Shown: one piece after another, positions 2,912 through 35,984 of the stretch
Layout: every line of letters begins with the position of its first letter
Numbering within the stretch: the stretch's first letter is position 1
Source of the DNA: Limisphaerales bacterium
GTDB taxonomy: Bacteria; Patescibacteriota; Microgenomatia; UBA1400; PJMF01
Assembly: GCA_044350895.1 (NCBI GenBank)
Contig: JBILGT010000002.1
Coordinates: 36,554 to 100,553 of the forward strand
DNA: 64,000 nt
Direction of reading: 5' to 3'
The notes under the pieces: model-generated
Database searches by the model: none
The model's input: only the letters and a program-made list of their open reading frames with translations
Told to the model about the DNA's origin: nothing
Position numbers and translations under genes: made by a program

Positions 2912-4207
2912 ATGAAAAGAATACACAAATTTATAGTGAGTGCTAGTCTTTTCTTTGTTTTGATCCTCCAAAGCTTTATACAACCCCACACTGTCCGCGC
3001 AGCTGAGGCATGTCCTGGTACAACTGAAGGTTTTGGTGTTGAGCTACCACCCTATACCACAGACCTAAAACATACCGTTAAATTTGATACAACAAATTGG
3101 AGTAAAGATTACAAATATTTTATTGTGATTCGTTCAAGAGAATATGTTCCAGATATTGGTACTCGCAATGTAGAAGCAGATTCACCAGCATTTAAATTAG
3201 GAGCCGACACGTCTGTTTCAGATAGTGATGGGAAAGTTACTCTCACAGGTTCCCAATTAACATACGAAATAACATCAAGTTGGGCACTGCAAAATCGCAA
3301 TAATTCTTATGATTATCAAGATAAACATTATGTAGAAATCCATCGATACGCAACTGTTGCGATTGGCAACACCTGGAACTACTTCTGTAGCGGAGGAACG
3401 TACACCACTTCACCAGGCATCAAAGGCTGCAAGATTACTGTTTACCAGAATCGCTCTGATCAAGGTGGACAAGCATGTTATCTAGGCGGCAGCAATAGTT
3501 GTATTCAAACAAGTAGCAGTGAACAGGTGAATGTTCGGGTTGATAATTTAAAATACTCTGACGGCAAGGTTGTGGATGGTCTTGAAGTAAGCTTTGTGTT
3601 TGGGCAACCTGGCATGGGGGTAGCACCCGACTCTTTCCAAACAATCAGGAATGGTTCTGCTGCCGGTGCGTTTTACCCAAATGGGAGAGGCACCTTTAGT
3701 ATTCAACTGAGAATGCGTCGCTGGGGCATCAACTATGATATTCCAGGATGTTACAGAGAAATCGAAGTTGAAGAAGTCTGTAATGATAAATGCAACAAAA
3801 CTGAGACAAGTACTGATAGTACTGAGAATCTTGATATAGTTTCTGTTTTTCAAATTTGTTCTCAAATTAGTAACACTGAACTTAAGGCAAAATGTGAGGA
3901 GTGTGCCGGTGGCCCAGATGGTCGTAAGGGTGTTTGGACGGCGGTGGGGTGTATTGAACGCGATCCACAAAATATAGTGCAGCGCTTTATTGAGATTGGG
4001 CTAGGTGTAGGAGGCGGTATCTGCTTACTAATGACACTGGCCGCAGGCTTTATGATTACCACTTCTCAAGGTGATCCGAAACAGTTCAACGAAGCTAAAG
4101 ACATGATTACTTCAGCAATTGTTGGATTATTGTTTATAATTTTCTCAGTGTTCATTTTACAATTTATAGGTGTGACAGTCCTGCAAATTCCAGGATTTGG
4201 AAGCTAA
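2912..4207 (+). CDS. secreted protein with large N-terminal extracellular domain fused to a C-terminal VirB2/TrbC-like pilin-type two-helix domain
   Basis: Signal peptide (MKRIHKFIVSASLFFVLILQSFIQPHTVRA). The C-terminus '...GLGVGGGICLLMTLAAGFMITTSQGDPKQFNEAKDMITSAIVGLLFIIFSVFILQF...' has the same TM1-(G/S)GDxxK...A(K/R)(N/D)-xxxSAIxGL-TM2 architecture as the pilin array at 9.6-14.4 kb. Confidence 0.5.
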   Translation: MKRIHKFIVSASLFFVLILQSFIQPHTVRAAEACPGTTEGFGVELPPYTTDLKHTVKFDTTNWSKDYKYFIVIRSREYVPDIGTRNVEADSPAFKLGADTSVSDSDGKVTLTGSQLTYEITSSWALQNRNNSYDYQDKHYVEIHRYATVAIGNTWNYFCSGGTYTTSPGIKGCKITVYQNRSDQGGQACYLGGSNSCIQTSSSEQVNVRVDNLKYSDGKVVDGLEVSFVFGQPGMGVAPDSFQTIRNGSAAGAFYPNGRGTFSIQLRMRRWGINYDIPGCYREIEVEEVCNDKCNKTETSTDSTENLDIVSVFQICSQISNTELKAKCEECAGGPDGRKGVWTAVGCIERDPQNIVQRFIEIGLGVGGGICLLMTLAAGFMITTSQGDPKQFNEAKDMITSAIVGLLFIIFSVFILQFIGVTVLQIPGFGS

Positions 4208-4217
4208 TCATATATCT

Positions 4218-5534
4218 ATGAACAAATTACGACTCTTTATCTTCACCACACTGATATTTTTGTTTACGTTCTTTATTCAAACTACTACCGTGCATGCTGC
4301 GATAGGTGCTGACTGTGGCAATCATGGAAGATGTGGGGGTACATCAGATGGTTGTGGTGCAAACGAAATTTGTATTGATGCTACCGTCTGGGATACACAA
4401 GGTGGTAAGTGTGAAGCGTCAAACGGACGCTGTGAGAATCGAGATGATTCAAGGAATGAAGTCTGCGGCTATACTGATGGTCTCCTGCATGGCACAGATC
4501 AATGGTGTGGAGCCCGCGGCGGCTGCGCCACAGGATACCTGTGTAATAGCACTTCTAAAAAATGTGAGCTTAATAATGGGGATACTGCTGGAGGCGCCGT
4601 TGGCTCAGCATGTGCAAATATCCAGGAAGTATATGATAGCCAGTGTGGCTACTGGACTTCCAATCAATGTGGCGCAGCTGGCGTTTGTCAGACCGGGTAT
4701 CGCTGCGTTGCTGTGACCTCAATCATTAGCCGAACTGGCTATGCCTGTAGACCAGATCCCACAGATGAACCCAATAAATGTCCAGGGTCTCCTACACAAC
4801 CTGCAGTTGCATTGAGCTGTGGTGAATCTTCTGACAACCCAAATGCAACGTGCAGTTGTTCAGGCACTGGTGCTGGACTTGTTGACTTGGCCTACGGCAA
4901 AAAGTGTTGTGGCTGGAAACTAAATGGTGGAGCTGACTGTGGTGCAACAAGCCCCACTACCCCCCTCCTGTGTGGCCAAACTTCTGCAAATAGTACGGCA
5001 ACCTGTGGTTGTACAGGAGCAACTCTCACTCGGAATACCAATGTCGACGCAACAACAGAACGCAATCAAATGTACTGTTGTGGGTGGATAAACGGCAAAA
5101 GTTGCGGAAGTACCAAACCAGCCACCCCAGTAGATCCAGCAAATCCTGTTGATCCTACAGATCCTGGAACAGGTGGTGCTGATGACACGACAACTTTAGA
5201 TATTTTTGCAGGTCCGAATTCTGAAGACTTTAAACTACTCAATCCTATTGCAAACTTCAGTACTGATGCCGCAGCGCGAGCTTCATTTACCTCTCCTGGT
5301 GGAATTATTTCGCGGGTGCTTCTCTTTGCATTTCCAATTGCAGGATTAATCCTGTTTGTAATGCTAGTCATTGCAGGATTCCAGATTGTAGCTGGGGCAG
5401 CATCAAGTGGCAGTAAATCAATTGATGCTGGTAAACAACGTGCCAGCAATGCACTCCTTGGCTTTGTGCTACTCTTCGTTGCCTACTGGGTAATGCAGAT
5501 TATTGAAACAATTTTTGGAATTACGATTCTCTAA
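4218..5534 (+). CDS. cysteine-rich secreted modular protein, Pro-rich linker, C-terminal VirB2/TrbC-like pilin-type domain
   Basis: Probable start at 4218 (MNKLRLFIFTTLIFLFTFFIQTTTVHA signal peptide) rather than the track start 4197. Repeated CG..G.C..GY.C and C.C.G.G....CCGW modules, a PxDPxNP linker, and C-terminal '...FPIAGLILFVMLVIAGFQIVAGAASSGSKSIDAGKQRASNALLGFVLLFVAYWVMQI...'. Confidence 0.5.
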   Translation: MNKLRLFIFTTLIFLFTFFIQTTTVHAAIGADCGNHGRCGGTSDGCGANEICIDATVWDTQGGKCEASNGRCENRDDSRNEVCGYTDGLLHGTDQWCGARGGCATGYLCNSTSKKCELNNGDTAGGAVGSACANIQEVYDSQCGYWTSNQCGAAGVCQTGYRCVAVTSIISRTGYACRPDPTDEPNKCPGSPTQPAVALSCGESSDNPNATCSCSGTGAGLVDLAYGKKCCGWKLNGGADCGATSPTTPLLCGQTSANSTATCGCTGATLTRNTNVDATTERNQMYCCGWINGKSCGSTKPATPVDPANPVDPTDPGTGGADDTTTLDIFAGPNSEDFKLLNPIANFSTDAAARASFTSPGGIISRVLLFAFPIAGLILFVMLVIAGFQIVAGAASSGSKSIDAGKQRASNALLGFVLLFVAYWVMQIIETIFGITIL

Positions 5535-5559: not shown

Positions 5560-6273
5560 TTACTTGCCGAATCTTCGTTTGCGTGATGCATATTCTTCTA
5601 AAAGTTCGTCAAACTTCTCAGGGGTAAATTCTGGAAAATAAAATTTTGGGAATGCTAACTCAGCATACTCACTTTGCCAAAGCAAAAATCCAGAGCTGCG
5701 GTGCTCACCACTCGTGCGAATAATGAAGTCTGGATCAGGGATACCTACTGTATCAAGTGCTTGTTCAACTTCTTCTTTTGTAATTGGTTTTGTTGTAGTC
5801 GTTACCCCTGACGCTTCGCGTGCTGCAACCAAACTATTTACGGTTCTTAAAAGCTCATCTCTTCCACCGTAGTTCATTGCAAAAATGACGGTGATACCAG
5901 TATTATCTTTGGTCAGATCAATTCCCCGCTGTATTCGTTCCTGGATCTCAGAATCAAATTTAGAGATATCACCAATTGTTTTTACACGGACATTTTTTTC
6001 GTGGAACTTTGGTACAAATACATCAAAAACTTCTTTGAAAAGATCAAGCAAGTATTCAACTTCACGTTTGTCACGCTGCCAATTTTCAGTACTAAAAATC
6101 CAAAATGTTATATAGCGAACACCTCTAGCATGAGCGTGATCAACGAGTGGCTCAAAAACAGCATCTACAGCTCGTCTGTGGCCCAACAAAACCTCCAGTT
6201 TATGCTCTCTCGCCCAACGTCGGTTGCCATCACAAATAATTGCTACATGTTCTGGAAGTGTGTTGTCAGACAT
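5560..6273 (-). CDS. uppS: isoprenyl transferase (undecaprenyl diphosphate synthase)
   Basis: 'HVAIICDGNRRWAREH...' and the rest of the cis-prenyltransferase family signature. 237 aa is the typical length. Confidence 0.9.
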   Translation of the reverse strand: MSDNTLPEHVAIICDGNRRWAREHKLEVLLGHRRAVDAVFEPLVDHAHARGVRYITFWIFSTENWQRDKREVEYLLDLFKEVFDVFVPKFHEKNVRVKTIGDISKFDSEIQERIQRGIDLTKDNTGITVIFAMNYGGRDELLRTVNSLVAAREASGVTTTTKPITKEEVEQALDTVGIPDPDFIIRTSGEHRSSGFLLWQSEYAELAFPKFYFPEFTPEKFDELLEEYASRKRRFGK

Positions 6274-6275
6274 AG

Positions 6276-7079
6276 TTACTTTGTAATTGCAGTTCCTACT
6301 ACAGTATCACCAATAAGAGAGTGAAATAATGCATCTTTTTTTAGGCCTGAGATAATGCCCACCTGCATTCCTGCAGCAGCAAGTTTCATTGATTCTTCAA
6401 TTTTATGTGCCATGCCACCAGTTACATCAAATCCTTTTGTGACTCCAATTAGCTTTTCCACTTCTCTGATATTTTCTTCAGTGATGTGCGGAATTACTGC
6501 GCCAGATGCATCAAGTACACCCGCCACTTCAGTGACATGAATAATTTTCTGAATACTGTATTTATCTGAATCAATAAAGTGCTCAGCAATGTATCCTAGT
6601 ATTTTTTCAGTAGACCAAATTGTACATCCTTTAGTACTATCCACTAATACATCTCCACCTGTAATTGGGACCATGCCTTTTGCCAGATATTCCTCAAGGA
6701 CATCGCCACACCAGTGTTTGGCTTTGTCTGAATCAGTTACCATGGAATTACTGAAGTAAAAACTTACTGCGGGGATTGAGTGTGCCAAGAACTCTTGCAC
6801 CACAATTCGATTGAGTTGTGCAGCACTATCTTGAGTTACCGCCATACCCATTCTACTGTCTTCATTGATGAATCCATCCATTGTCTTGTAACGCAGTGCA
6901 GGTGCATGTGCGAAACTACCTTGACCATGTCCCACAATATACAAACCACCAGTTTGATGTTGGGCACGAACAATTTCAGTCACGAGCTGTTTGAGGACAT
7001 CTGCTCGTACCATCATCGGAACTTCTTTATTTGTGATGATTGAGCCACCGAGTTTGATGAGTGTAAGTTTTTGTTTCAT
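6276..7079 (-). CDS. ipk: isopentenyl phosphate kinase (amino-acid kinase family)
   Basis: N-terminal 'LIKLGGS', internal 'VGHGQGSFAHAP', C-terminal 'DVTGGMAHKIEE', all as in archaeal IPK. 267 aa. 4-bp overlap with uppS. Confidence 0.7.
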   Translation of the reverse strand: MKQKLTLIKLGGSIITNKEVPMMVRADVLKQLVTEIVRAQHQTGGLYIVGHGQGSFAHAPALRYKTMDGFINEDSRMGMAVTQDSAAQLNRIVVQEFLAHSIPAVSFYFSNSMVTDSDKAKHWCGDVLEEYLAKGMVPITGGDVLVDSTKGCTIWSTEKILGYIAEHFIDSDKYSIQKIIHVTEVAGVLDASGAVIPHITEENIREVEKLIGVTKGFDVTGGMAHKIEESMKLAAAGMQVGIISGLKKDALFHSLIGDTVVGTAITK

Positions 7080-7621
7080 TCAGTTGCTCCTTGTTGTAAT
7101 AATCCTTCGGCAAGAATTCTTTGTGCAGCAATATACACATATGGACGTAAAATTTTTGGACCTTCTGTCTCAAGAAAATCTGGTAATGCGATGGTTGCAA
7201 TAGTGATACTTGGGTACTTATTTTTCAAATACACCAGCTCCGCTTCTGTCAAAGTTACTTTATGACCTACAGCATCAAAGACAACGGTTCCAGGTTTGTT
7301 GACTTTACGTTGCTCCACCCGAACTATAGGGAGACCATTGCTTATTCGATTCAGGGTGAGAGGTAAACCACGCTCCTCAAAACTTTCACGAACAATTGTA
7401 GTCCTCATATCAGCATGTTCACCATCCTCTACACCGCCACCAATCATGCAAAACATTCCTGCTAGCAAACTCACCCATTCTGAGAAAAGTTCAGAATTTG
7501 GAATTCTCTCCTGTTTTCCGGCATCTTCAGGATGAACCCCAAAAAAAATTGTGCCGTCATTAGTTGGATTCATCAGCCAAGCATATGCTCCCAAATGTAT
7601 TTTTTCTGTGGAATTAGACAT
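7076..7621 (-). CDS. Nudix hydrolase
   Basis: Nudix box-like 'GGGVEDGEHADMRTTIVRESFEERGL'. 4-bp overlap with ipk and 2 bp from idi, so operonic. Confidence 0.5.
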   Translation of the reverse strand: MSNSTEKIHLGAYAWLMNPTNDGTIFFGVHPEDAGKQERIPNSELFSEWVSLLAGMFCMIGGGVEDGEHADMRTTIVRESFEERGLPLTLNRISNGLPIVRVEQRKVNKPGTVVFDAVGHKVTLTEAELVYLKNKYPSITIATIALPDFLETEGPKILRPYVYIAAQRILAEGLLQQGATE

Positions 7622-7622: not shown

Positions 7623-8216
7623 TTATTTTTCTCCTAAGTTTTTAGACAATTTCAGTAATAGGTCATTTCTCTCTAGCATAATCACAAACCAGGGCGCCCA
7701 GTCTTTACTCACTGCTCTATCACACACTTTTTCCCAGCTCACCCACTCAATTGCAGCAACTTCATCAGGATTCGGCGCAACAGTTCCCTCAAACCACCCC
7801 ATAAATACTTGATCAATTTCGTTTTCACTAAACTCATCGTTACATCGTACTTGGTACTGAAACTTCTCAACTGGGTGCAACTCAATTGGCTTTCCATTTT
7901 CATCATTTGTAATACCTAATTCAGCTTCCAATCTTCGCCGAGCGCAGGCTTCATAACTTTCATCTGGCCACACATTCCCACAAGCAGTATTTGCCCACTG
8001 TAATGTACCCACAATTTTTTTGGCACTTCTCTGCTGAATAAGCAGTTCATACTCGCCCGAAGCATTTTCTCTAAACATGAAAACAGAAATTGCCCGGTGC
8101 AGTTTTCCTTCGCCTCGATGCGCCTCAAGTTTATCCATTGATCCAATCACCACATCGTCAGAGGTCACCAAAGTTACAAGATCAGTTTGTGGAATTTGAT
8201 TAGACAAGTTGTTCAT
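7623..8216 (-). CDS. idi: isopentenyl-diphosphate delta-isomerase, type 1 (Nudix fold)
   Basis: 'LHRAISVFMFRE...ELLIQQRSAKK...WANTACGNVWPDESYEACARRRLEAELGI' matches the type-1 IDI pattern (HRAFSVF...QQR...NTCCSHP...E.E). Confidence 0.75.
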   Translation of the reverse strand: MNNLSNQIPQTDLVTLVTSDDVVIGSMDKLEAHRGEGKLHRAISVFMFRENASGEYELLIQQRSAKKIVGTLQWANTACGNVWPDESYEACARRRLEAELGITNDENGKPIELHPVEKFQYQVRCNDEFSENEIDQVFMGWFEGTVAPNPDEVAAIEWVSWEKVCDRAVSKDWAPWFVIMLERNDLLLKLSKNLGEK

Positions 8217-8463
8217 GTTCCTCTGCTTGATCTACTAAAATAAATAGCGCAGGAAGCAACAATCCTGCTTCAGGTAGTGACGCTTTCGCTTTTGGTATTT
8301 CTTTTCGTTTTACCAATTGATCAGTAGATAACTTATAATTACCAGGATATCCACCCCATAACAATTGTTCTTTATTTCTCCAACATGACCGTTCGATTGA
8401 CATACATAGTATTAGTCGCAAAAGCATAGCAAAATCATGCACTCAAAAATAAATTGAGAGAGG

Positions 8464-8802
8464 TTACTCGGAAAAAGCTATCCAGAAGCGGATCAATAAG
8501 TAAAACAATAAAATTTGCCAATATACACAAAAAAGCACCAACCAATTTGCAAAAAATGGGATCAGATCACAACCAAAAAAGCTGGTAGTTTGACAAGAAA
8601 AAATAAACCGGACTGCTGGCACAACCAGAAAAAACCAGACAATTTTTGCCAAAACATACACGGCCACTGGCAAGAAAGTCATCCAGGCAAATACTCTCTC
8701 TCGAGTCAGCGACTGCATTGTTTGATATGGGTGCAGTAACAGACCACCAGTGATCTGTGCAACAGAGTATATGAATGAAGCAAGGAACGCGCGGTTGTTC
8801 AT
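8464..8802 (-). CDS. small polytopic membrane protein (3-4 TM), function unknown
   Basis: Hydrophobic throughout. 4-bp overlap with the upstream 71-aa ORF, so it is the third gene of the sigma-factor operon. Confidence 0.35.
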   Translation of the reverse strand: MNNRAFLASFIYSVAQITGGLLLHPYQTMQSLTRERVFAWMTFLPVAVYVLAKIVWFFLVVPAVRFIFSCQTTSFFGCDLIPFFANWLVLFCVYWQILLFYLLIRFWIAFSE

Positions 8803-9014
8803 AATTTGATCCAGTTCAATGCTTCAAGACCAAATGCTGTTAAACCAGAGAGTACGGCGAGTACTTGCCAAGGATAGTTGCCTACAAATGCCGCAATGGA
8901 ATCAAGTTTATCGGGAAGGACTTTATTTGAGTGGAGTCGCGCCTGCATCTGGGCTTCAAACTGCAGCTTTGATAAAAAATCCATTTTTTGTGGTTCTTCA
9001 ACGGGTTGATCCAT
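8799..9014 (-). CDS. small single-pass membrane protein; candidate anti-sigma factor
   Basis: Immediately downstream of the ECF-like sigma gene (stop/start 4 bp apart). Has a cytoplasmic N-terminus and a C-terminal TM 'WQVLAVLSGLTAFGLEALNWI'. The assignment is by position only. Confidence 0.3.
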   Translation of the reverse strand: MDQPVEEPQKMDFLSKLQFEAQMQARLHSNKVLPDKLDSIAAFVGNYPWQVLAVLSGLTAFGLEALNWIKL

Positions 9015-9017
9015 AAA

Positions 9018-9602
9018 TTATGTGCTCTCTTGCTCCAAATATAGTAATCTAAATTGCTCACGTGCTCTGAATAACTCAGATTCCACTGATTTTACAGTTT
9101 TCCCCAGTTCAGTGGCAATTTGTGCCACTTTCTGGCTATCAACGTACTTTTTGAGCAAAAGTTCTCGAGAATATTCATTCATTTTTTTGAGTGCAACTAG
9201 GACACGAGCTGAAACTTCATGAGAATCTTCCACAGGACTTGAGAGCAACAGATGTGATAAAGCAGTGGTTTGAATTGCCTTTTTGGCATACATTTTTCGA
9301 TAAAAGTCAGCAACTTCATGTTTTGCGATAGCAGACATCCACGTCCAGAGACTCGCACTACCGTTATACAGGGACAAATTTTTTAGACAGTTTAAGAAAG
9401 TCTGCTGTGTCATTTCTTCAGCATCTTGGCTATTTTCCACTCTACTTTGAATGAATCTGAGGATTTTTTTATGAAAATGGTTAAACCAGTACTCGACGGC
9501 ATCTCGATCACCGAGTTTCAAAAGCTCTACTAGTTGCATTTCACTTTGTTGGTTCATACTACAGGAAGTATACTTTATTCTAGCTACACCGTATAATATC
9601 AT
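9018..9602 (-). CDS. RNA polymerase sigma factor, sigma-70/ECF family
   Basis: Region-2-like 'DAEEMTQQTFLNCLKNL' and a region-4 HTH 'SQKVAQIATELGKTVKSVESELFRAREQFR'. The likely true start is the internal Met at 9557 (MNQQSEMQLVELLK...). Confidence 0.65.
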   Translation of the reverse strand: MILYGVARIKYTSCSMNQQSEMQLVELLKLGDRDAVEYWFNHFHKKILRFIQSRVENSQDAEEMTQQTFLNCLKNLSLYNGSASLWTWMSAIAKHEVADFYRKMYAKKAIQTTALSHLLLSSPVEDSHEVSARVLVALKKMNEYSRELLLKKYVDSQKVAQIATELGKTVKSVESELFRAREQFRLLYLEQEST

Positions 9603-9606
9603 CCAT

Positions 9607-9966
9607 ATGTTTTTTCTAGTACAAAAAGTATATGCTGCAGGCTGCTCAGATCTAGACTATGGTTCTCCCGAACTTAATTTAGGCAGAGTGCTTTGCTTGA
9701 GCGACAGCACAGCTGTTGAAGATGTCTATAAAGATCCAGCATTTCTTGTCAACTTAATTGTTAGCAATTTATTTGTTTTTGCTGGAATAATAATTTTTCT
9801 TCTTATTTTTTACGCTGGATTTAAATTTATCTCTCAAGGAACTAAGGGCAAAGAGGAAGCAAAAGGGATCATTACTGCCGCTGTGACTGGCTTAGTATTG
9901 ATGTTTGCAGCATATTGGGTCCTCCAGATTGTAAAAACATTAACGGGGACTGACGTTGCACTCTAA
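9607..9966 (+). CDS. VirB2/TrbC-like pilin-type small membrane protein, paralog 1
   Basis: TM1 (LVNLIVSNLFVFAGIIIFLLIFYAGF), loop 'SQGTKGKEEAKG', TM2 (IITAAVTGLVLMFAAYWVLQIV). A TATAAT lies 12 bp upstream. Confidence 0.5.
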   Translation: MFFLVQKVYAAGCSDLDYGSPELNLGRVLCLSDSTAVEDVYKDPAFLVNLIVSNLFVFAGIIIFLLIFYAGFKFISQGTKGKEEAKGIITAAVTGLVLMFAAYWVLQIVKTLTGTDVAL

Positions 9967-9969
9967 ATT

Positions 9970-10419
9970 ATGAAAACAAATATAGTACTCAAAACTATTA
10001 GCTATATCTATCTTTTTGCTGTTATTATCAGTGCATTTTTCTGTATCCCAGGCCTCACCTTCGCACAAACTGCTGAAGACTTAGGGGTTGGAACAATTGC
10101 AGCCCCTCCTGGCGTGGATAAATATAATGCTGCCGCACAAGCGCAAGGTGCCGATATTGCGATCGTTTACTTTATGTCGAACATGATCAAGCTCTTTACG
10201 GTAGTTGCTGGAATCTGGGTAATTTTGAATGGCATTCTTGCAGGCTACTACTTTGTGCAATCAAGTGGAGACGCAGGCACCTATGAAAAAGCCCGTAATC
10301 AAATTACTCAAAGTGCCATTGGTCTTGCAATGATTGTACTTTCATATATGTTTACTGGGCTTGTTGGTTTACTTTTCTTTGGAGATGCGGGTATATTCTT
10401 AAATCCAAGGTTAAAATAG
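9970..10419 (+). CDS. VirB2/TrbC-like pilin-type small membrane protein, paralog 2
   Basis: Signal peptide plus 'VVAGIWVILNGILAGYYFVQSSGDAGTYEKARNQITQSAIGLAMIVLSYMFTGLVGLLFFGDAG'. Confidence 0.55.
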   Translation: MKTNIVLKTISYIYLFAVIISAFFCIPGLTFAQTAEDLGVGTIAAPPGVDKYNAAAQAQGADIAIVYFMSNMIKLFTVVAGIWVILNGILAGYYFVQSSGDAGTYEKARNQITQSAIGLAMIVLSYMFTGLVGLLFFGDAGIFLNPRLK

Positions 10420-10420
10420 T

Positions 10421-10969
10421 ATGAAACAGTTTATACTCAGCATCGTTGTTGCACTCTCAGTGCTATTCTTCGTCCCTACAGTGGCGCAAGCACAATCATG
10501 TCCTAGCAACCGGACTTGTAGTGGCGGTTGTACCGCTGTGGGCCAATGTGTTGGAAACAAACGATGTGTTAGTGTACAAGGCGTTATTTACCCTGGAACA
10601 GTTGATTGTGGTTCTGCCCAACTTGGCGGAGTTAAGCCACCTCCAGCTATTACTAGTTTTAATTTTCAAACTGGCTCTGCATCAGGCAATGGCATCATCC
10701 TCTTTTTATCTAGATTGATCAATCTTTTTGTCATAGTGTGTGGAATCTGGACAATGTTTAACTTTTTATATTCTGGATACATTCTAATTTCTTCTCAGTC
10801 AGATACTAAAAATCAAAGTGAAATAAAAGATAAATTAACAATGACAGCCATTGGCTTGGCTATTATTGCCGGAGCATACATAATCGCTGGACTAATCGGT
10901 CTTATTTTCTTTGGAGATGCGGGATATATTCTCAATCCGCAGCTCGTCAGCGCACTTGATAGAGGGTAA
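10421..10969 (+). CDS. VirB2/TrbC-like pilin-type small membrane protein, paralog 3 (with Cys-rich N-terminal extension)
   Basis: Signal peptide, a CPSNRTCSGGCTAVGQCVGNKRC module, then the shared two-helix domain ending 'IGLIFFGDAGYILNPQL' (same C-terminal tail as paralog 2). Confidence 0.55.
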   Translation: MKQFILSIVVALSVLFFVPTVAQAQSCPSNRTCSGGCTAVGQCVGNKRCVSVQGVIYPGTVDCGSAQLGGVKPPPAITSFNFQTGSASGNGIILFLSRLINLFVIVCGIWTMFNFLYSGYILISSQSDTKNQSEIKDKLTMTAIGLAIIAGAYIIAGLIGLIFFGDAGYILNPQLVSALDRG

Positions 10970-11025
10970 TATGGCTGGAAGATAGACTTTCTTCTGTCAT
11001 ATGGGTATAATTACAGGCGTACATT

Positions 11026-11406
11026 ATGATGATATACATAGCACAAAAACTTACCCAGTTCGGTTCTGGTTTTGCACCAGTTGTTGATACTGCATGGACA
11101 GATGGCTCAGATACAGAAGCAGGGGTACTTACCAATTTAGAAGCATTCATTTCACAAATCTTGGGACTGATTACAGTAATTGGTAGTTTGTTCTTTGTTA
11201 TCAACTTTCTCATGGCTGCCTTGAGCTGGATCACCGCAGCAGGTGACAGCGGCAAAATTCAAAAAGCTCGCGACCAGATGATTCAATCTACGTTGGGACT
11301 TGTTATTATGGTAGGCTCTTATGCAATAATTGGACTTATTGGATCAGTGGTTGGTATCGATATCTTACAACCAGGCCAAGCATTAAAGATGTTGATCCCA
11401 AGGTAA
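11026..11406 (+). CDS. VirB2/TrbC-like pilin-type small membrane protein, paralog 4
   Basis: 'WITAAGDSGKIQKARDQMIQSTLGLVIMVGSYAIIGLIG'. Confidence 0.55.
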   Translation: MMIYIAQKLTQFGSGFAPVVDTAWTDGSDTEAGVLTNLEAFISQILGLITVIGSLFFVINFLMAALSWITAAGDSGKIQKARDQMIQSTLGLVIMVGSYAIIGLIGSVVGIDILQPGQALKMLIPR

Positions 11407-11411
11407 ATTTA

Positions 11412-11840
11412 ATGTCATTAAACAAGTTACAAAAGACCATCTCATCAGTTACAACAACTACAGCACTTTTAGTGAGTAGTTCTACTTTGGCACTCGCTCA
11501 AACAGGCATAACCAATCCAGCAATTGGCATTTATGGTAAAGACCCAAATGCGGCCAAGGCCGGCACTTCATTTGCGGGGTATGTCGCTATCATGTGGAAA
11601 GCTATGATTTCAATTGGAGCATTACTAGTTCTCTTATACTTTGTATGGGGTGCAATCGATTGGATAACAGCCGCTGGAGATAAAGGTAAAATGGAAGGTG
11701 CCCGCAATAAAATGCTCAATGCCTTTATTGGTTTACTGCTATTGGTCAGCTCATACACCATAATTGCATTCGTTGGCTGGCTATTCTTTGGAACTGAATT
11801 CAACATCTTACAACCAATATTTATATTTAATAATCCATAA
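11412..11840 (+). CDS. VirB2/TrbC-like pilin-type small membrane protein, paralog 5
   Basis: Signal peptide plus 'WITAAGDKGKMEGARNKMLNAFIGLLLLVSSY'. Confidence 0.55.
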   Translation: MSLNKLQKTISSVTTTTALLVSSSTLALAQTGITNPAIGIYGKDPNAAKAGTSFAGYVAIMWKAMISIGALLVLLYFVWGAIDWITAAGDKGKMEGARNKMLNAFIGLLLLVSSYTIIAFVGWLFFGTEFNILQPIFIFNNP

Positions 11841-11845
11841 TATTT

Positions 11846-12187
11846 ATGCCAACACCAACAAAAATAGACTTACAAGGAGGCGCAATCCTCGCACAAATTC
11901 CAGGCACTGAGAACATGGAATCGCCAAATGCCGGCTTTGCCCGTCTTATTGGGAATATTCTTGCCGCAGTCATGGTTGTTTCATTACTCCTTGTTCTCTA
12001 CTTTTTAGTAGTTGGTGCAATTGAGTGGATTACGGCAGCTGGCGATAAAGGTAAAATTGATTCAGCACGTAACAAAATGACAAATGCTGTTATCGGCATC
12101 ATAGTTTTATCTTCCGTTACCGCACTATTTGCAGCTGTACAATATTTCTTAGGTGTCAATGTACTTACATTTTCATTTACCCCGTAA
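11846..12187 (+). CDS. VirB2/TrbC-like pilin-type small membrane protein, paralog 6
   Basis: 'WITAAGDKGKIDSARNKMTNAVIGIIVLSS'. Confidence 0.55.
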   Translation: MPTPTKIDLQGGAILAQIPGTENMESPNAGFARLIGNILAAVMVVSLLLVLYFLVVGAIEWITAAGDKGKIDSARNKMTNAVIGIIVLSSVTALFAAVQYFLGVNVLTFSFTP

Positions 12188-12325
12188 GGAGCGATTGATT
12201 CGCATACTTTAGAGTCTGGGTAAATCAAACTGGTACTTGCAAGCACTAAAAGTATATTGCTAAGCTATTACTTGACGGAGAGCATATAATATAATCTAGT
12301 GTAAGATACACTTACAAGGAGCAAG

Positions 12326-12739
12326 ATGATTGGTAAATTAAACACGGCATTAGTAGCCAGTACAGTAACTGGATTTTTAAGTGCACCAATTGCATTTGCA
12401 GTGGAACCTACTTCAGGAGTTACTTCAGCAGTTGGCACAGTCACAGCAGGAACTGGATGGGCAGATAACATCGGTGGTTTAATCACTAGTGTCTTAACTA
12501 TCGTCATGGTTGTTGCTATCCTACTCGTCTTACTCTACCTCATCATGGGTGGTATCGAATGGATCACATCTGGTGGTGATAAAGGTAAAACTGAAGGTGC
12601 TCGTAACAAAATTACCTCAGCTATCATTGGTATCATCATCTTGGCAGCAGCTTATGCGCTCGTCCAACTTGTCGCCTACGTATTAGGATTTGCAAGTCTG
12701 AACGCAGCTCTCGAATCATTACCTAGAATCGGTACGTAA
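12326..12739 (+). CDS. VirB2/TrbC-like pilin-type small membrane protein, paralog 7
   Basis: AAGGAG RBS 8 bp upstream of the ATG and a TATAAT around 12286. Signal peptide plus 'WITSGGDKGKTEGARNKITSAIIGIIILAAAYALVQLVAYVLGFASLNAAL'. Confidence 0.6.
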   Translation: MIGKLNTALVASTVTGFLSAPIAFAVEPTSGVTSAVGTVTAGTGWADNIGGLITSVLTIVMVVAILLVLLYLIMGGIEWITSGGDKGKTEGARNKITSAIIGIIILAAAYALVQLVAYVLGFASLNAALESLPRIGT

Positions 12740-13179
12740 TAACAATAATAATGAATTTAATTAAAAGGAGTTACATGTTAAATAAAATTCAAAAAGCAGC
12801 AGCAGCAACTGCGGGAGTCGCAGCCAGCTTACTAACCACTGCAGTAGCATACGCTAAAGATACCAGTGCTATAGGCACAGTCACACCAGGTACAGGTTGG
12901 GCAGATAACATCGGTGTTTTAATCACCAGTGTCCTCACCATCGTCATGGTTGTTGCTATCTTGCTCGTCTTACTTTACCTCATCATGGGTGGTATCGAAT
13001 GGATCACATCTGGTGGTGACAAAGGTAAAACTGAAGGTGCTCGTAACAAAATTACTTCAGCTATCATCGGTATTATCATCTTGGCCGCATCATATGCACT
13101 CGTCCAACTTGTCGCCTACGTCTTAGGATTTGCAAGTCTTAATGCCGCCCTGCTCTCATTGCCTCAAATCGGTAAGTAA
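12433..13179 (+). repeat. tandem duplication (~300 bp units, ~440 bp period) of pilin-type gene bodies
   Basis: 12461-12739 and 12901-13179 align base-for-base with only scattered substitutions (e.g. gcagataacatcggtg[g/t]tttaatcac...). Confidence 0.8.
12751..13179 (+). CDS. VirB2/TrbC-like pilin-type small membrane protein, paralog 8 (near-identical tandem copy of paralog 7)
   Basis: The probable true start is 12775 (AAAGGAG RBS just upstream; MLNKIQKAAAATAGVAASLLTTAVAYA signal peptide). The mature domain is about 90% identical at DNA level to paralog 7. Confidence 0.6.
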   Translation: MNLIKRSYMLNKIQKAAAATAGVAASLLTTAVAYAKDTSAIGTVTPGTGWADNIGVLITSVLTIVMVVAILLVLLYLIMGGIEWITSGGDKGKTEGARNKITSAIIGIIILAASYALVQLVAYVLGFASLNAALLSLPQIGK

Positions 13180-13202
13180 TATTTTTAAAATTAGAATTTC
13201 AG

Positions 13203-13230
13203 AAACCCCCATCTTGTATGGGGGTTTTTG
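13203..13230 (+). terminator. rho-independent terminator after pilin paralog 8
   Basis: AAACCCCCA-tcttgta-TGGGGGTTT followed by a T-run. Confidence 0.7.
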
Positions 13231-13266
13231 GTATATTAGGTGTGTTTGTTACACATTTGACCCACT

Positions 13267-13821
13267 TTGATGTATAATGTAAGTCTAATGAAAAAAGCCG
13301 TTATATCACTTGTATTAGTACTCATATTTAATTTTTTAGCTGTATTTAGCAATCCCATAGTATTCGCAGCAGACGAGGTAAAATTAGTCAAAGATGGTAG
13401 TACCTACTATCTGAGTACTGAAGGTTCTGCATCCACCACGCGCAGTGGACAAACCTATCGTCTTGTTCCTGTTGAGCAAACCGCCGCAACCAGTGCTGCA
13501 AAAACAGCATCTCGTTCAGCAGTTGTTCCGCCTCCTGGATATGTAGGTAATATTGGAGAGCTTATCAGCTTCTTACTTAAGTTGGTAATGATTGTGGCAA
13601 TTTTACTTATTCTTCTCGCCTTTATCACCGCTGGTTTTGAGTGGATTACATCTGGAGGTGACAAAGGTAAAACTGAAAGTGCCCGAAACCGCATTGTCGC
13701 AGCTTTTGTTGGTGTACTCATCTTATCTGCCGCATACGCATTAACACTACTCGTTGCCTATGTTCTTGGTTTTGATAGTATTGATGATGTTTTTGGCAGC
13801 ATTAAGCGAATTAATCCATAG
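13267..13821 (+). CDS. VirB2/TrbC-like pilin-type small membrane protein, paralog 9
   Basis: Probable start 13288 (MKKAVISLVLVLIFNFLAVFSNPIVFA). 'WITSGGDKGKTESARNRIVAAFVGVLILSAAYALTLLVAYVLGF'. Confidence 0.55.
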   Translation: MMYNVSLMKKAVISLVLVLIFNFLAVFSNPIVFAADEVKLVKDGSTYYLSTEGSASTTRSGQTYRLVPVEQTAATSAAKTASRSAVVPPPGYVGNIGELISFLLKLVMIVAILLILLAFITAGFEWITSGGDKGKTESARNRIVAAFVGVLILSAAYALTLLVAYVLGFDSIDDVFGSIKRINP

Positions 13822-13844
13822 GTCACAAACTCTACATTCACTTC

Positions 13845-14372
13845 TTGCTGTTCTATCAGGTATACTATAGAGATTCAAAATCTATGCGCCGTAACACATT
13901 TACCTATCAAGTAATTTCATTTTTTAGAGCTGCAATCTTCAGTGTCGCACTACTTGCAAACGTCGCTGGCCCAGTCTACGCCCAAACCCAGGCTTGGTCA
14001 GGTGTGTGTGTCGGCCCAGCTCAGATTAATGCAGCAACGAAAGCCAATGATGTTGCTACTATCCAAGGCGTTCAGTGTCTACTTGCCAATGTATTTACTG
14101 TGATCATAACAATCGTCGGTCTGGCAGGATTTGTCATGTTTATTGTAGGTGCCTTTAGATATTTGGTTTCTGGCTCAAATAGCAAGGGTATTGAAGCCGC
14201 CAAAAATACCATTCAATACATGGTGATCGGCATTATTGTAACGCTCAGTGGTTTCATCATTCTGAATATGATTTCTTCATTCACCGGAATCGACGTCATT
14301 ACTCGATTTGTTATTCCAAGTTCAGATCGTGGTACTTCTGCAGATGACTATCCAATTCCAGTTGGAATGTAA
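13845..14372 (+). CDS. VirB2/TrbC-like pilin-type small membrane protein, paralog 10 (divergent)
   Basis: Probable start 13884 (MRRNTF...signal peptide). 'IVGLAGFVMFIVGAFRYLVSGSNSKGIEAAKNTIQYMVIGIIVTLSGFIILNMI'. Confidence 0.45.
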   Translation: MLFYQVYYRDSKSMRRNTFTYQVISFFRAAIFSVALLANVAGPVYAQTQAWSGVCVGPAQINAATKANDVATIQGVQCLLANVFTVIITIVGLAGFVMFIVGAFRYLVSGSNSKGIEAAKNTIQYMVIGIIVTLSGFIILNMISSFTGIDVITRFVIPSSDRGTSADDYPIPVGM

Positions 14373-14459
14373 TGCTTGTCGATTCTCCCCGACAAAATTA
14401 TAAATTACAGCACAGCATTCTCTTTCAGCTAAACCTCATGAATTAGGTATAATACAACT

Positions 14460-26197: not shown

Positions 26198-26231
26198 ATA
26201 AAACGAGCTTGTTTAGGTACAATACCGTTCT

Positions 26232-27534: not shown

Positions 27535-27605
27535 TTTGAGTCAACTAGTACTACCACTAATACTTCACTACACAGAATGCGGGTGTTCCAGGTATAATTA
27601 TCGGT

Positions 27606-30600
27606 ATGGCATCCGATACTCAACCTCGGCAGATTGTTTTTGTGGCTGGAACTACTACTTCAGTAGATGAGTATCCTGTTGATGTAGACCACATAAAACA
27701 AATTGGTTTTTACTCCTCTGATGATTTTATTCAGTTTAAAGATCTCTTTTTAGAGCTCATCAATTCTCTCCATCTTAATGATCAAGGTATTTACGAACTA
27801 TATCCCGGTCAAGAAATCAAACAGATTCGCATTACATATCAAAAGGATGGCGGAAATTTTCAAAAAGTTTCACTTCGCACTACCGATGGATTACCTGGTG
27901 ACCCAGGAATACCAGAAAAACGGGAACGACTTTTCTTCTGTGACTTTGTCTATATTTCACTCGGCATCGCCAAAATCCTTCGAAAGAACTATCCCAAATC
28001 TACTGAAACACTGAAAGACTATACCGACAGCTTCGATATTGAGAAACAAATTAAAGAATGGGGAGCTGCTGGAGAGAAGCAGTATCTTTCCCAACGAGCA
28101 CTGCAGTGGGAAACTCCAGCAATCAAAGAGTTGCTTACTGAAATTTTTACGGCGTTTCAAGATATCACTGTAGAACTTAAAAAAGAGCCTGTCCAAGAAC
28201 CACCAGCTGAGGAATCAGGTGAACGACGCGCTACAGAAGCTGATGCTCTACTTGTCTTACCAGAAGTTTTGACTGCAGGAGTCACTCCAACTGTAGATGG
28301 TGGTGGCGATACAGCTGATACTACTAGCACACCTACTAGCACAAGAACTGAATCAATTGAAGATGAATCAAGCTACGTAACAGCGCGACAATTTGTTTTG
28401 GGGTTTGCGAGAACAACATTGATTGACGATGTCTTGAGGCGCAGTGGTCTAGATCCTGATTCTTTACCGCCTGAACTTCGAGGGCGATATGATGAGCTCT
28501 TCAGAATTCTTGAAACAGAACTAACTATTGTGCTGAGAAATCTTTCTGATGAAGAACGAGAACGACTTGCTTCTGGCGATGTGAGTCAAAAAATTTCCGT
28601 CTACTATTTACTACTCCGCCAATTATCAGGTAGTCCATCAGCACGTTTTTATGAGTTGTTTGTAGAATTTTATGAAACAGAAGTCACACATCTAGTTGAG
28701 AACCAACAAACAGAAGCGGCCCAACAACTTGTGACCGCAGTAACTGCCCAGTTTAGCGAAGTAGCACAAGAAATTCCTGAGCTTCAAAGAATTCATGATA
28801 ATTTACTAGCCTGGGAGCGTGAAATTTTGAGTGCAGCTCCAGTTGCAGCAACAACTGCTGAGACTGATGATGAAATCGAAACACCAGCTACTATTGTAGA
28901 AGCAACTGATGAAGTTGAAATACAGATCTCTCGCCTCCCCGATCCGCCAGTTATCATTCCAACGTTCCAAGCGCAAGTCAGTGCGCTTCCTCAAGTCCAA
29001 CAACTTACACAAAACGAGCAGGCCAGCATCCCCAATCGTTCTGGCCACGTTATTTGGGGAGCAATGGCTGAACTATTTTCAGAGGAAGATCTTCGTCGAA
29101 ATAATATTCCACCAGAGCTTTTTAACGCTGTTTCTCAGACTGCTTATGAATACCTCAATGGACTTTCTGCGCAGGAACTTAAAAAACTTGCAAAATCACC
29201 AAGTAGTTTAATTCGTCATATAAAAAATGTTTCTGTCAGACTACAAACTGATGCTGTTTTTAGTGAAACATACGGACAATACAAGTTATCCTATGCTACA
29301 CCAGCAATTAATCGTACCGAGCGAATTGAAGTTGAGACACAGTGGGCTTCTGAGAATTTGAAATACGAACTTTTCAGTGCCCACGACATTACGACATCAT
29401 TACTCAACCAATCTGCAAAATTAACCAGTGAGTATCGTGATGTTGAACAGAATCTTGAAGCAAAAGTTTATGGTATTTTCCTTACATTTAGTACTGATTA
29501 TCTCCAACTTTTATACTTCAATCCCAACGAGCGACGTACCTTAATCATTCGAATACAAAACACACTCAATGCTGATCCTCAGTTTTTAAGAGAATTAAGT
29601 GAGTTTTACAACGAACTAATTGTCTATTTTGCTGAACAACAAAGACTTGAGGAACGTGAAGACCTTGTTGAGAGTTTAAAAAGTACTAATCACTCATTTT
29701 TACAAGAAGAAGGCACTTTTCGCTATATTGTCAGTGATGTTCAACTATCAGATTCACACAAATTATTTATTGAGCAGTTAAAAAAGAGCTTAAACACTGA
29801 CTCCCCGCCAATCTTGCAAAACACTGCAAATGTGCTCGACGCCCTGATCATTGCACATGGAATCGAAGAAACTAACCGTCTTATTCAAGGGGTAAGTCCA
29901 CAACTACTAGAAATGACGTTTGGATTACCCACAGGGATCATTACTGATGACAACCATCGGTCGATTAGAGAAATTTTGGGTAACTACATAACTGTTCGTG
30001 TTTTCAACCTTGCACCAGGTGAAATTGCCGATCACAGAGCCCTATTAGTACCAGGTCAGACTACTATTCCTACAAATGCCACTAGTTTGCAGAAACACTT
30101 GGGACCAGTACATAATCTTGCAAAAATAATTACTGAAGATGGTTCTGAAAAAACGACTCTTGCACTACAAGGCGGAGTTAAGAAAAGAATTGATGCATTA
30201 GAAAAGGTTTTGGGACAAAAGTGGAGAAACTTAGGACTTGAGGAACGTGCAGCAGTTTACTTGTACTTTGATAAACCGTTTGATGCTTCACTTAAGCAAC
30301 GTCTAAAAAGTAAGTCAGCAGATTTGGAAGCTGACAAGCATATTTTAGGCGTCTTCATAGAATTTGCAGGTTTTAACGATCGATTATTGCCAGAGCTTGT
30401 CACTGATGCTCGGCTTAATGGATTTCAAAGATTAACTGGTGGAATCCCTGTTGAGACTAAATCGGGTGATGATATTACTGAGTTTTACAAAATCACCCGT
30501 CAAGCTGAAATACTTGAGCTTGAAGTTTCACTACTCGTACTAGACGAACTTTCAGCATTAGAGCGGGAACAACTTGCAGCACAGTACCAGATGTCTGCTG

Positions 30601-33451: not shown

Positions 33452-33493
33452 ATCATGATAAGATACTAAAGAAAAGAATCGTGAACTTCATGT

Positions 33494-35923: not shown

Positions 35924-35984
35924 AATGACTTTTTTAATAAAGCCACTTTTACTCTGAGGTAAAATACAAGTACAATAGAAACCA

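Follow-up and report, generated by a model that had tools for sequence, protein, structure and literature searches.

A putatively membrane-tethered ECF sigma factor system in Microgenomatia that most likely serves isoprenoid lipid-carrier genes rather than the divergent pilin array

In the classical sigma/anti-sigma arrangement, the gene for a small single-pass protein immediately follows that of the ECF sigma factor. ECF sigma factors commonly, although not universally, autoregulate positively from an ECF-type promoter located before their own operon. Such cognate promoters have a conserved -35, a spacer of ~16-17 nt and a CGT- or CGA-type -10, and are found near the sigma gene. Class I anti-sigma factors carry an N-terminal domain of ~100 aa with four helices, while in those of class II two helices wrap sigma2 and sigma4. 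In class II factors, a short cytoplasmic two-helix part is followed by one TM helix (PMC7406223). A two-protein variant is known from B. subtilis, where the ECF sigma factor SigM is paired with the membrane anti-sigma complex YhdL-YhdK, which senses UndP allosterically (PMC11081497, PMC6827917). SigM, in turn, controls PG synthesis, UndP recycling and the release of UndP from other pathways.

The locus described here lies in a 64-kb stretch of DNA (the window, that is, all of the DNA analysed) and includes three tightly coupled minus-strand genes, all present as ORFs:

9018..9557, minus strand: ECF-type sigma gene, 179 aa (mechanical ORF to 9602)
8799..9014, minus strand: p71 gene, 71 aa, a tail-anchored membrane protein and candidate minimal anti-sigma factor
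8464..8802, minus strand: p112 gene, 112 aa, a three-TM membrane protein and candidate co-anti-sigma factor or sensor

Only 3 nt separate the sigma stop codon from the p71 start, and the p112 gene overlaps the p71 stop codon via ATGA. The three genes are co-transcribed, with translational coupling. The first of them encodes a bona fide two-domain ECF sigma factor. Its ORF matches Pfam Sigma70_r2 (1.4e-9, 38 bits against a cutoff of 24; ORF residues 40-103), Pfam Sigma70_r4_2 (2.7e-10, 40.2 bits against 25.7; ORF residues 133-183) and NCBIfam TIGR02937, sigma70-ECF (67.8 bits against 42.9), which bears out the initial annotation of a three-gene minus-strand operon headed by a sigma-70/ECF-like factor. 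With sigma2 and sigma4 as its only domains in 179 aa, the protein has the ECF (group 4) layout, and a profile of its homologs matches the solved ECF sigma factors AlgU/sigma-H, RpoE, SigW and CnrH in the PDB. The ECF subgroup is left without a name because no NCBIfam equivalog or subfamily model (BldN, SigZ, SigM, SigW, RpoE and others) reached its own cutoff. The homologs (n = 129) are mostly 175-190 aa long. The true start is likely M16 of the ORF (ATG at 9557, 179 aa), since most homologs align from this residue, a protein of 179 aa with the identical sequence has been recorded and the preceding extension is out of frame in one relative (L001). This 15-aa N-terminal extension (9558-9602) was rejected as coding on the latter ground, because homologs mostly begin at the equivalent of M16 and because it also overlaps the promoter boxes discussed below. 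The sigma/pilin region of the window is situated near dnaA/dnaN. Rfam and tRNA scans of the 64-kb window gave no matches.

The trio was compared with 80 loci from different Microgenomatia/Woesebacteria-like genomes, in which sigma identity is 43-65%. A p71 homolog directly follows sigma in 77 of these loci, as expected for the 71-aa single-pass protein that had been assigned to the anti-sigma position; p112 has a homolog in 76, and the whole trio is present in ~76 of the 80 genomes. Upstream of sigma, a divergent pilin array recurs in ~66-73 of the 80 loci; arrays of 4-10 genes are found in ~73, and a contig end accounts for most of the loci without one. The recurrence of trio and pilin array is far beyond chance. 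In a mirror-tree analysis of the suggested co-variation, the distances of sigma and p71 are correlated (r = 0.75), but no better than those of sigma and the pilin (r = 0.78). These correlations are unspecific, as the pilin control pairs correlate equally (r = 0.66-0.78 over all pairs, those with p112 included).

The product of the second gene, p71, has a single C-terminal TM helix (~residues 49-66) followed by ~5 residues. Its cytoplasmic part of ~45-47 residues comprises an amphipathic helix (12-31), P34 and a further helix (35-47). In the alignment of homologs, F13, L17 and P34 are invariant, and conservation of A21, Q24, L27 and W49 is 90% or higher. No Pfam or NCBIfam profile matched p71 or 32 of its homologs, and a PDB search with p71 returned no match at E up to 10, CnrY included. 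Likewise, a class I anti-sigma domain (ASDI: RseA, RsiW, RskA, zf-HC2) was not detected in p71 with Pfam, NCBIfam or the PDB. The layout of fewer than 50 cytoplasmic residues, two helices and one TM helix does fit a CnrY-like class II anti-sigma factor, although there is no sequence similarity to CnrY itself. For p112, the high-confidence AF2 model (pLDDT 89.5) predicts three long helices and a short interfacial one, at residues 3-23, 25-34, 36-67 and 76-111. The invariant residues are H24-P-Y-Q-T-x-Q30, P45, W95-Q96, Y101 and R105-F106, and the protein carries a Cys70/Cys78 loop. Its family is small, with 80 clusters only among 1.84 billion proteins, and searches of Pfam, NCBIfam and the PDB with p112 and its relatives revealed no known family or fold relative.

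On the other side of the sigma gene, a short gap leads to the pilin array:

9558..9606, no strand: shared divergent promoter region of 49 bp, between the sigma ATG at 9557 and the pilin ATG at 9607
9607..14372, plus strand: T4SS-pilin-like array of ten genes with PF18895 matches, for which regulation by sigma is not claimed

Three genes score above the PF18895 (T4SS_pilin) cutoff of 26.6 bits, namely 9970-10419 (28.0), 13845-14372 (28.5) and 2912-4207 (28.7). The first pilin gene, at 20.5 bits, falls below this cutoff and yet is a paralog; other array members are just below it. That the sigma start lies within ~50 bp of this gene was correctly described at the outset, and the head-to-head geometry is conserved, with a median sigma-pilin distance of 47 nt across loci. 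On the plus strand of the gap, a perfect TATAAT (9592-9597) is found 9 nt before the pilin ATG. On the minus strand, TATACT (9572-9567) stands 9 nt before the sigma ATG, and a TATTAT (9598-9593) overlaps the pilin -10. In 66 of 79 loci, a perfect TATAAT precedes the start codon on the divergent side by 5-11 nt. Judging by sequence and placement, these boxes read as housekeeping-type -10s for leaderless mRNAs, an arrangement usual in the lineage. Thus, the promoter of the sigma operon is of the housekeeping type and gives a leaderless mRNA. By contrast, no ECF-type promoter was found in 9558-9606, whether by reading the sequence, with the motif PWM or with the pattern GAAC-N15-18-CGT. The '-35 AAC / -10 CGT'-like promoter that had been expected there is absent, and the GAAC-N15-18-CGT pattern is not enriched in the window (15 instances against 16.9 expected). 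Autoregulation from an upstream promoter of its own is missing from the sigma operon, because no motif precedes it.

A different picture emerges on the far side of the trio, where a search for enriched k-mer pairs that used no prior pattern yielded GCATG...CGAC (16 observed against 0.3 expected). The corresponding motif stands before a group of isoprenoid genes:

8411..8441, minus strand: putative ECF-like bipartite promoter, directly after the p112 gene, from de novo k-mer pair enrichment
8200..8403, minus strand: small ORF of 67 aa, starting 11 nt after CGAC
7623..8216, minus strand: idi, type 1 isopentenyl-diphosphate isomerase with a NUDIX fold (NF002995, 129.6 bits vs 127; Pfam NUDIX, 7.9e-20)
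7076..7621, minus strand: NUDIX-like gene inside the isoprenoid operon (Pfam NUDIX, 1.8e-3, weak; no NCBIfam name)
6276..7079, minus strand: ipk, isopentenyl phosphate kinase (NF040647, 174 bits vs 120; Pfam AA_kinase)
5560..6273, minus strand: uppS, cis-prenyl (undecaprenyl) diphosphate synthase (TIGR00055, 226.9 bits vs 109.55; Pfam Prenyltransf, 2.1e-69)

The consensus is TTGCRTGATTT-N13-CGACTAAT, that is, TGCRTGA-N16-CGAC and then TAAT. In the window, the copy consists of TGCATGATTT at 8441-8432, a spacer and CGACTAAT at 8418-8411, the distance from TGCATGA to CGAC being 16 nt. A search of the whole 64 kb gave this one exact match (8415-8441) and no other, and there is no copy on the pilin strand. 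Every one of the 49 strict instances is on the sigma strand, and the spacer measures 16 nt in 46 of them. When the window and the 80 loci were scanned with a PWM, matches of at least 10 bits numbered 60 on the sigma strand, one (weak) on the other strand and one in shuffled DNA. In the window and dozens of relatives, the motif lies 7-13 nt upstream of the leaderless start codons of mevalonate-pathway, idi, ipk and uppS genes. According to the PWM, the information of the -10 part resides in the CGAC core and not in a terminal T, which argues against a sigma-A -10 box. Based on these features, TGCRTGA-N16-CGAC is predicted to be a candidate cognate promoter near the sigma gene.

Altogether, 48 of the 80 loci carry the motif. 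It is found within 200 nt after the p112 stop in 22 of these and at 200-1500 nt in 17, most of which have the order p112, idi, motif. In one locus (L058), it stands between sigma and p71, upstream of p71, which would give the feedback loop typical of ECF systems. The genes behind the motif in relatives encode HMG-CoA reductase (PF00368, 2.4e-89), GHMP (mevalonate) kinase, IPK, Idi, UppS and zf-ChsH2-like ORFs. The 67-aa ORF of the window, which had no match in a Pfam search, lies where relatives have small ORFs of the W-R-x-x-x-R-Y / zf-ChsH2 (DUF35-like) kind, such as that of L063 (PF12172 zf-ChsH2, 3.1e-7). In some genomes, idi is itself within the sigma operon or fused to p112, as in the p112-Idi fusion protein P0217. 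A scan of metagenome contigs with the strict motif gave 25 loci, in 13 of which the sigma trio adjoins. Recognisable genes for HMG-CoA reductase, Idi or mevalonate kinase, or else small ORFs like those that head the isoprenoid operons of relatives, follow the motif in 23 of the 25; of the other two, one has no downstream ORF in the contig and one precedes an uncharacterised membrane protein. Nevertheless, 28 loci, mostly from a subclade whose p112 lacks the loop, have no motif within 6 kb, and the idi promoter there is of the TAGAAT type. A search of the 28-32 loci without the motif found no alternative one, the enriched pairs being terminators or sigma-A-type promoters.

These observations are best accommodated by a membrane-tethered ECF sigma system that most likely drives isoprenoid lipid-carrier genes and not the pilin genes, a reading to which we give a probability of roughly 0.6. 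The sigma factor would recognize TGCRTGA-N16-CGAC as its promoter. It would be tethered at the membrane by p71, through two short cytoplasmic helices in the class II style of CnrY. Since p71 has almost no residues beyond the membrane, a signal would be read by a p71-p112 complex within the membrane itself. Release of sigma would then increase the synthesis of IPP/DMAPP and polyprenyl diphosphate. More tentatively, and with somewhat less than an even chance of being right, this complex may sense the lipid-carrier pool or the state of the membrane and switch on the mevalonate pathway, idi, ipk and uppS homeostatically via the motif. As to the signal, one may suggest the polyprenyl phosphate level or some related state of the membrane; this idea is speculative and draws on gene neighbourhood and on analogy with the sensing of UndP by SigM-YhdLK.

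The initial annotation had favoured another reading, in which the divergent pilin array and the T4SS-like locus are controlled by an ECF sigma/anti-sigma pair that responds to an envelope signal. The head-to-head arrangement persists in ~66-73 of the 80 genomes, the gap having a median length of 47 nt; T4SS-like genes with PrgI-like, VirB4/TraG-like ATPase and M23 hydrolase domains lie downstream in the window, and pilin-type genes are also found on the far flank of the sigma/isoprenoid block. However, in genomes as streamlined as those of CPR, a conserved gene order counts for little by itself, and the present region is also close to dnaA/dnaN. The gap itself offers only housekeeping -10s, the pilin promoter being a perfect TATAAT in leaderless placement like the housekeeping promoters of the lineage. 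Furthermore, the generic GAAC..CGT pattern is not enriched, and the ECF-like motif, which faces the isoprenoid genes, is absent from the pilin strand of the window and has one weak match there over all loci. Control of the pilin genes by this sigma factor is thus improbable.

A more serious objection concerns the motif, which might be read by another sigma factor, or by a transcription factor, whose gene lies in a different part of the genome. In that case, the closeness of motif and trio would be a matter of conserved gene order, and the sigma regulon would be a different one. The -35 part lacks the AAC typical of many ECF promoters, and both halves begin with TTGC, so the motif can also be read as a direct repeat with half-sites for a DNA-binding protein. 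No motif stands upstream of the sigma operon, hence the missing autoregulation; a subclade retains the trio without a nearby motif, and several metagenome loci have the motif beside idi and HMG-CoA reductase with no sigma gene in the DNA examined. Nevertheless, the constant spacing of 16 nt, the CGAC core and the 7-13 nt to leaderless starts point to a promoter rather than an operator, and neither the window nor the 12-kb loci contain a second sigma factor of the same family. The motif between sigma and p71 in L058, together with the presence of idi in the sigma operon or its fusion to p112, also ties the two elements to each other, and a different regulator appears rather unlikely, if less so than control of the pilins. 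It might also be argued that p71 and p112 are membrane proteins of the pathway, for instance in the handling or flipping of polyprenyl phosphate, with sigma constitutive or controlled otherwise. The polar cluster of p112 (H24-P-Y-Q-T-x-Q30, W95-Q96, Y101, R105) resembles a ligand or active site more than a pure protein interface, the Idi fusion exists, and profile searches detected no homology of either protein to known anti-sigma families. Against this, a small single-pass protein with a conserved amphipathic N-terminal helix follows the ECF sigma gene in 77 of 80 loci, and a tail-anchored protein of 71 aa has little capacity beyond binding, which makes such a role hard to credit. The membrane-tethered system directed at isoprenoid genes remains our preferred reading.

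CPR/Patescibacteria are mostly uncultured and, to our knowledge, next to nothing has been established about how they control their genes. A literature search for ECF sigma factors in CPR/Microgenomates, or for a link of these to pilins, found nothing relevant. The mevalonate pathway of CPR has been discussed mainly in evolutionary terms (PMC6107057). The locus offers a compact circuit, with one sigma factor, two tiny membrane proteins and a sharp motif that marks isoprenoid/lipid-carrier genes in many genomes, and it sets right the attractive but unsupported notion that the neighbouring pilin/T4SS genes are under the control of this sigma factor. If the proposal is true, it would describe, for the first time, a circuit of transcriptional control over isoprenoid synthesis in CPR/Patescibacteria, and would place the pathway that supplies the cell-wall lipid carrier under ECF control in reduced genomes. 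It would also represent a new, non-homologous class of anti-sigma complex and a second, independently evolved case of SigM-type monitoring of the lipid carrier from within the membrane. In addition, it would provide an orthogonal sigma/promoter/anti-sigma set and a motif for the annotation of regulons in Microgenomatia.

With RpoE-RseA and SigW-RsiW, the system shares the sigma2/sigma4 layout and a membrane-anchored partner encoded immediately downstream. Unlike in those pairs, p71 has neither a class I anti-sigma domain nor an extracytoplasmic domain that could serve as a substrate for site-1/site-2 proteolysis, the -35 lacks AAC and there is no autoregulatory promoter. The likeness to CnrH-CnrY-CnrX of Cupriavidus metallidurans extends further: the sigma profile aligns with CnrH along its whole length (4cxf_A, 1.7e-8), p71 is, like CnrY, very short, with two cytoplasmic helices in fewer than 50 residues and one TM helix, and sensing of the signal calls for a third membrane protein. 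Nevertheless, p71 shows no sequence match to CnrY or to any PDB chain, and while CnrX, a metal sensor of the periplasm, has a single anchor helix, p112 is predicted to be an integral bundle of three helices with hardly any soluble part. The targets differ as well, being metal efflux for CnrH and, putatively, isoprenoid genes here.

The comparison with SigM-YhdL-YhdK concerns the whole circuit. In both cases, three genes encode an ECF sigma factor, a single-pass protein that binds it (putatively so for p71) and a second small polytopic membrane protein; both have a functional link to the isoprenoid lipid carrier, and sensing is predicted here to occur in or at the membrane, as in SigM-YhdL-YhdK, and not through a large extracytoplasmic domain. 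By contrast, p71 and p112 have no similarity to named families, as judged by profile searches of Pfam, NCBIfam and the PDB; p71 is far smaller than YhdL (~358 aa), and the operon described here is not autoregulated. Furthermore, the putative regulon differs from that of SigM in comprising the biosynthetic route proper (the mevalonate pathway with idi, ipk and uppS). Sigma-p71-p112 is thus best read as analogous to, rather than homologous with, SigM-YhdL-YhdK.

Three ORFs follow one another on the minus strand between 8464 and 9602:

9018..9602, minus strand: sigma ORF, matching Pfam Sigma70_r2 and Sigma70_r4_2 and NCBIfam TIGR02937, each above its curated cutoff
8799..9014, minus strand: gene of a 71-aa protein (p71), starting 3 nt past the sigma stop codon
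8464..8802, minus strand: gene of a 112-aa protein (p112), in an ATGA overlap with the p71 stop codon

TIGR02937 is the NCBIfam ECF superfamily model, and these matches bear out the ECF-type assignment made initially. In addition, a profile built from the sigma homologs matched the solved ECF sigmas RpoE, AlgU, SigW, and CnrH. None of the named ECF subfamily models in NCBIfam reached its own cutoff for this sigma; thus, its subgroup is nameless. A database search returned 129 homologs, most of 175-190 aa and mostly from Woesebacteria, Pacebacteria, or unclassified Patescibacteria records. Because their alignments begin at the second methionine of the ORF, the gene is likely 9018..9557, encoding 179 aa. 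Database entries exist for an identical 179-aa protein, as well as for a 194-aa version, both under the name 'RNA polymerase sigma-70 factor (ECF subfamily)', and the records of the two downstream products read only 'hypothetical protein'. Given the 3-nt gap and the ATGA overlap, the trio is one translationally coupled unit. Sigma and p71 also share a reading frame, with TAA TTT between them (9012-9020, minus strand), so that stop-codon read-through would fuse both; this arrangement is probably incidental, since it is not kept in a relative's locus (L001). On the opposite strand, 49 bp separate the sigma start from the first pilin gene, which begins at 9607.

One genome per species was scanned with the sigma alignment, which gave 80 loci (sigma identity 43-65%), and homologs of the window proteins were sought among all their ORFs. 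Of the 80 loci, 77 have a p71 homolog directly 3′ of sigma and 76 have a p112 homolog next, and a divergent array of 4-10 pilin-like genes is found upstream of sigma in about 73, most of the remaining loci reaching a contig end at that point. The three-gene observation is therefore real and conserved: at the two points where the initial annotation could have failed, the sigma HMM matches and the 71-aa ORF is kept. The co-variation of p71 with sigma that it had also called for is uninformative in a mirror-tree comparison (sigma-p71 r=0.75 vs sigma-pilin r=0.78).

The initial annotation had placed p71 in the position of an anti-sigma factor, and its architecture supports a probable role of this kind. 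Residues F13, L17, and P34 are invariant, and A21, Q24, L27, and W49 are at least 90% conserved. Residues 12-31 form a helix with the conserved hydrophobic positions on one face, and P34 divides it from another, shorter helix (35-47). A hydrophobic stretch (49-66) comes next, with a median of about 5 residues after it, so p71 consists of about 45 cytoplasmic residues and one membrane anchor and has practically no part beyond the membrane. The layout matches that reported for class II (CnrY-type) anti-sigma factors, in which sigma4 and sigma2 are contacted by two helices (PMC7406223). In sequence, p71 resembles neither CnrY nor any Pfam family or PDB chain.

For p112, helices are predicted with high confidence at 3-23, 25-34, 36-67, and 76-111 (pLDDT 89.5). 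Its invariant residues (G20, H24-P-Y-Q-T, Q30, P45, W95-Q96, Y101, and R105-F106) gather toward one membrane face. The family is small, with 80 clusters among 1.84 billion representative proteins. One subclade has a loop with C70 and C78, which is deleted in another. Among the 80 loci, and uncorrected for phylogeny, the motif described below is near p112 with a Cys-x7-8-Cys loop in 41/43 loci and absent within 6 kb of loop-less p112 in 26/33. In many loci, idi directly follows or overlaps p112. In a database protein, P0217 (326 aa; two Logan contigs), a p112 homolog (1-111) is naturally fused to an IPP isomerase (120-274) that is 43% identical to the window Idi.

For control of the pilin/T4SS locus by sigma, the check initially proposed was for an ECF-type promoter in the intergenic region 9558-9606. 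Comparison of all loci in the DNA 5′ of sigma (median sigma-pilin distance 47 nt) gave as the conserved element GGTATTATAC, which on the pilin strand reads as a perfect TATAAT located 5-11 nt 5′ of the pilin start codon in 66/79 loci. For sigma, 45/79 loci have a -10-like hexamer (at least 5/6 matches) 4-14 nt ahead of its start. In the window, these elements are:

9592-9597, plus strand: pilin -10 TATAAT, 9 nt before the pilin ATG
9572-9567, minus strand: sigma -10 TATACT, 9 nt before the sigma ATG

In 713 upstream regions of these genomes, TANAAT peaks sharply 6-12 nt before start codons; thus, the lineage seems as a rule to use housekeeping-type promoters that give leaderless mRNAs, and both divergent promoters look like this type. 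Boxes of the (G)GTATAAT type stand 6-12 nt before starts throughout the window (for instance, 14445-14459, 27590-27605, 26214-26231, and 35969-35984) and in the relatives' loci. Matches to the generic ECF pattern GAAC-N15-18-CGT number 15 in the window vs 16.9 expected, which is no enrichment, and none lies in 9558-9606. On the pilin side the proposed check is therefore negative, and control of the pilin/T4SS locus by sigma is not supported.

A different element was found when short-word pairs at promoter-like spacing were sought in all upstream regions without a prior pattern. The top pair, GCATG...CGAC, occurred 16 times against 0.3 expected, and the full motif is TTGCRTGATTT-N13-CGACTAAT. 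All 49 strict instances are on the sigma strand, with a TGCRTGA-CGAC spacer of exactly 16 nt in 46; a position weight matrix gave 60 matches on that strand, against a single match on the opposite strand and a single one in shuffled DNA. The window holds one exact site:

8415-8441, minus strand: motif, starting 22 nt past the p112 stop codon

The motif spacing equals that of ECF promoters. SigX-type sites of B. subtilis read TGTAAC-N17-CGAC, and in the -10 half of the motif the information is in CGAC, not in the terminal T. Most start codons come 7-13 nt past CGAC, a distance in keeping with leaderless transcripts. The -35 half is without the AAC of many ECF promoters and TTGC opens both halves, which could be half-sites for another protein. 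As a candidate promoter, which we infer is recognised by this sigma, the motif is carried by 48/80 loci, less than 200 nt past p112 in 22 and 200-1500 nt past it in 17, where the order is mostly p112, idi, and motif. A subclade with loop-less p112 keeps the trio but lacks the motif within 6 kb, and a TAGAAT-type promoter stands before its idi. The sigma operon itself is not autoregulated.

Downstream of the motif, the window isoprenoid genes overlap or are at most 2 nt apart:

8403..8200, minus strand: 67-aa ORF, next after the motif
after the 67-aa ORF, minus strand: idi (NF002995, above cutoff)
7076-7621, minus strand: NUDIX-like gene, 181 aa, between idi and ipk; weak NUDIX match, no NCBIfam name
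after the NUDIX-like gene, minus strand: ipk (NF040647, above cutoff)
after ipk, minus strand: uppS (TIGR00055, above cutoff)

In relatives, the motif is followed by HMG-CoA reductase (PF00368, 2.4e-89), GHMP-type mevalonate kinase, IPK, Idi, UppS, and small ORFs. Among the small ORFs is a match to the zf-ChsH2/DUF35 zinc ribbon; in one locus (L058), the motif comes before p71. A metagenome contig scan with the strict motif, unbiased by sigma position, returned 25 loci, 13 of which have the trio adjoining. Of these sites, 23 precede isoprenoid genes (HMG-CoA reductase, Idi, mevalonate kinase) or operon-leading small ORFs as in relatives, and one has no ORF within its contig. The last (L092; contig Ga0196971_1000001, 1.41 Mb) lies before the gene of a polytopic membrane protein from no known family, possibly another member of the regulon; it is the only strict-motif site with a downstream gene outside the isoprenoid pathway.

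The 67-aa ORF resembles a decayed DUF35/zf-ChsH2 N-terminus. Two leaderless starts are possible after the window motif (8200-8407, minus strand), an 11-codon mini-ORF (ATG 8407) and the 67-aa ORF (ATG 8403), and a weak terminator-like hairpin in the latter, just before idi (8268-8249), is within chance expectation. The NUDIX-like protein may be an uncharacterised pathway component; proteins directly after the motif in two relatives (L011 and L017) may, to judge by eye, be akin to it. The mevalonate pathway is known from Microgenomates, where ipk and idi are syntenic and prenyl synthases are linked (PMC6107057); a literature search found no report on the regulation of the pathway.

Other pilin and T4SS-like genes of the window are:

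2912-4207 and 4197-5534, plus strand: 431-aa and 445-aa proteins with a C-terminal T4SS_pilin domain, convergent with uppS
27606-38048 and 38152-41053: T4SS-like genes, including a 1613-aa protein with an M23 peptidase domain, a PrgI-like protein, and a VirB4/TraG-like ATPase

Thus, the sigma/isoprenoid block lies between pilin-type genes on both sides. The T4SS-like genes directly adjoin dnaA and dnaN and are thus near the probable replication origin. For the giant ORFs (1408 and 1560 aa), no Pfam match was obtained.

Taken together, an ECF sigma is co-expressed with two conserved small membrane proteins, and a dedicated bipartite motif marks the isoprenoid genes adjoining its operon. The evidence points to control of isoprenoid lipid-carrier genes rather than of the pilin/T4SS locus. 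In the proposed mechanism, sigma would be tethered and inhibited by p71 through its two cytoplasmic helices and, because p71 is without an external domain, the input would be read in the membrane by p71 together with p112. Release of sigma would then increase the synthesis of IPP/DMAPP and polyprenyl diphosphate. As the window has no predicted terminator in the interval from p112 to the motif, read-through past p112 from the housekeeping promoter may supply basal expression, to which the ECF promoter would add the regulated part.

In function, the nearest precedent is the B. subtilis operon sigM-yhdL-yhdK, where a two-protein membrane complex holds sigma, with release proposed to occur when free undecaprenyl phosphate falls (PMC11081497, PMC6827917). 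The two systems are alike in logic and gene order, a resemblance without homology. We rate the trio as an ECF sigma whose probable membrane anti-sigma complex consists of unrelated minimal partners, and its proposed regulon as unusual and well-defined.
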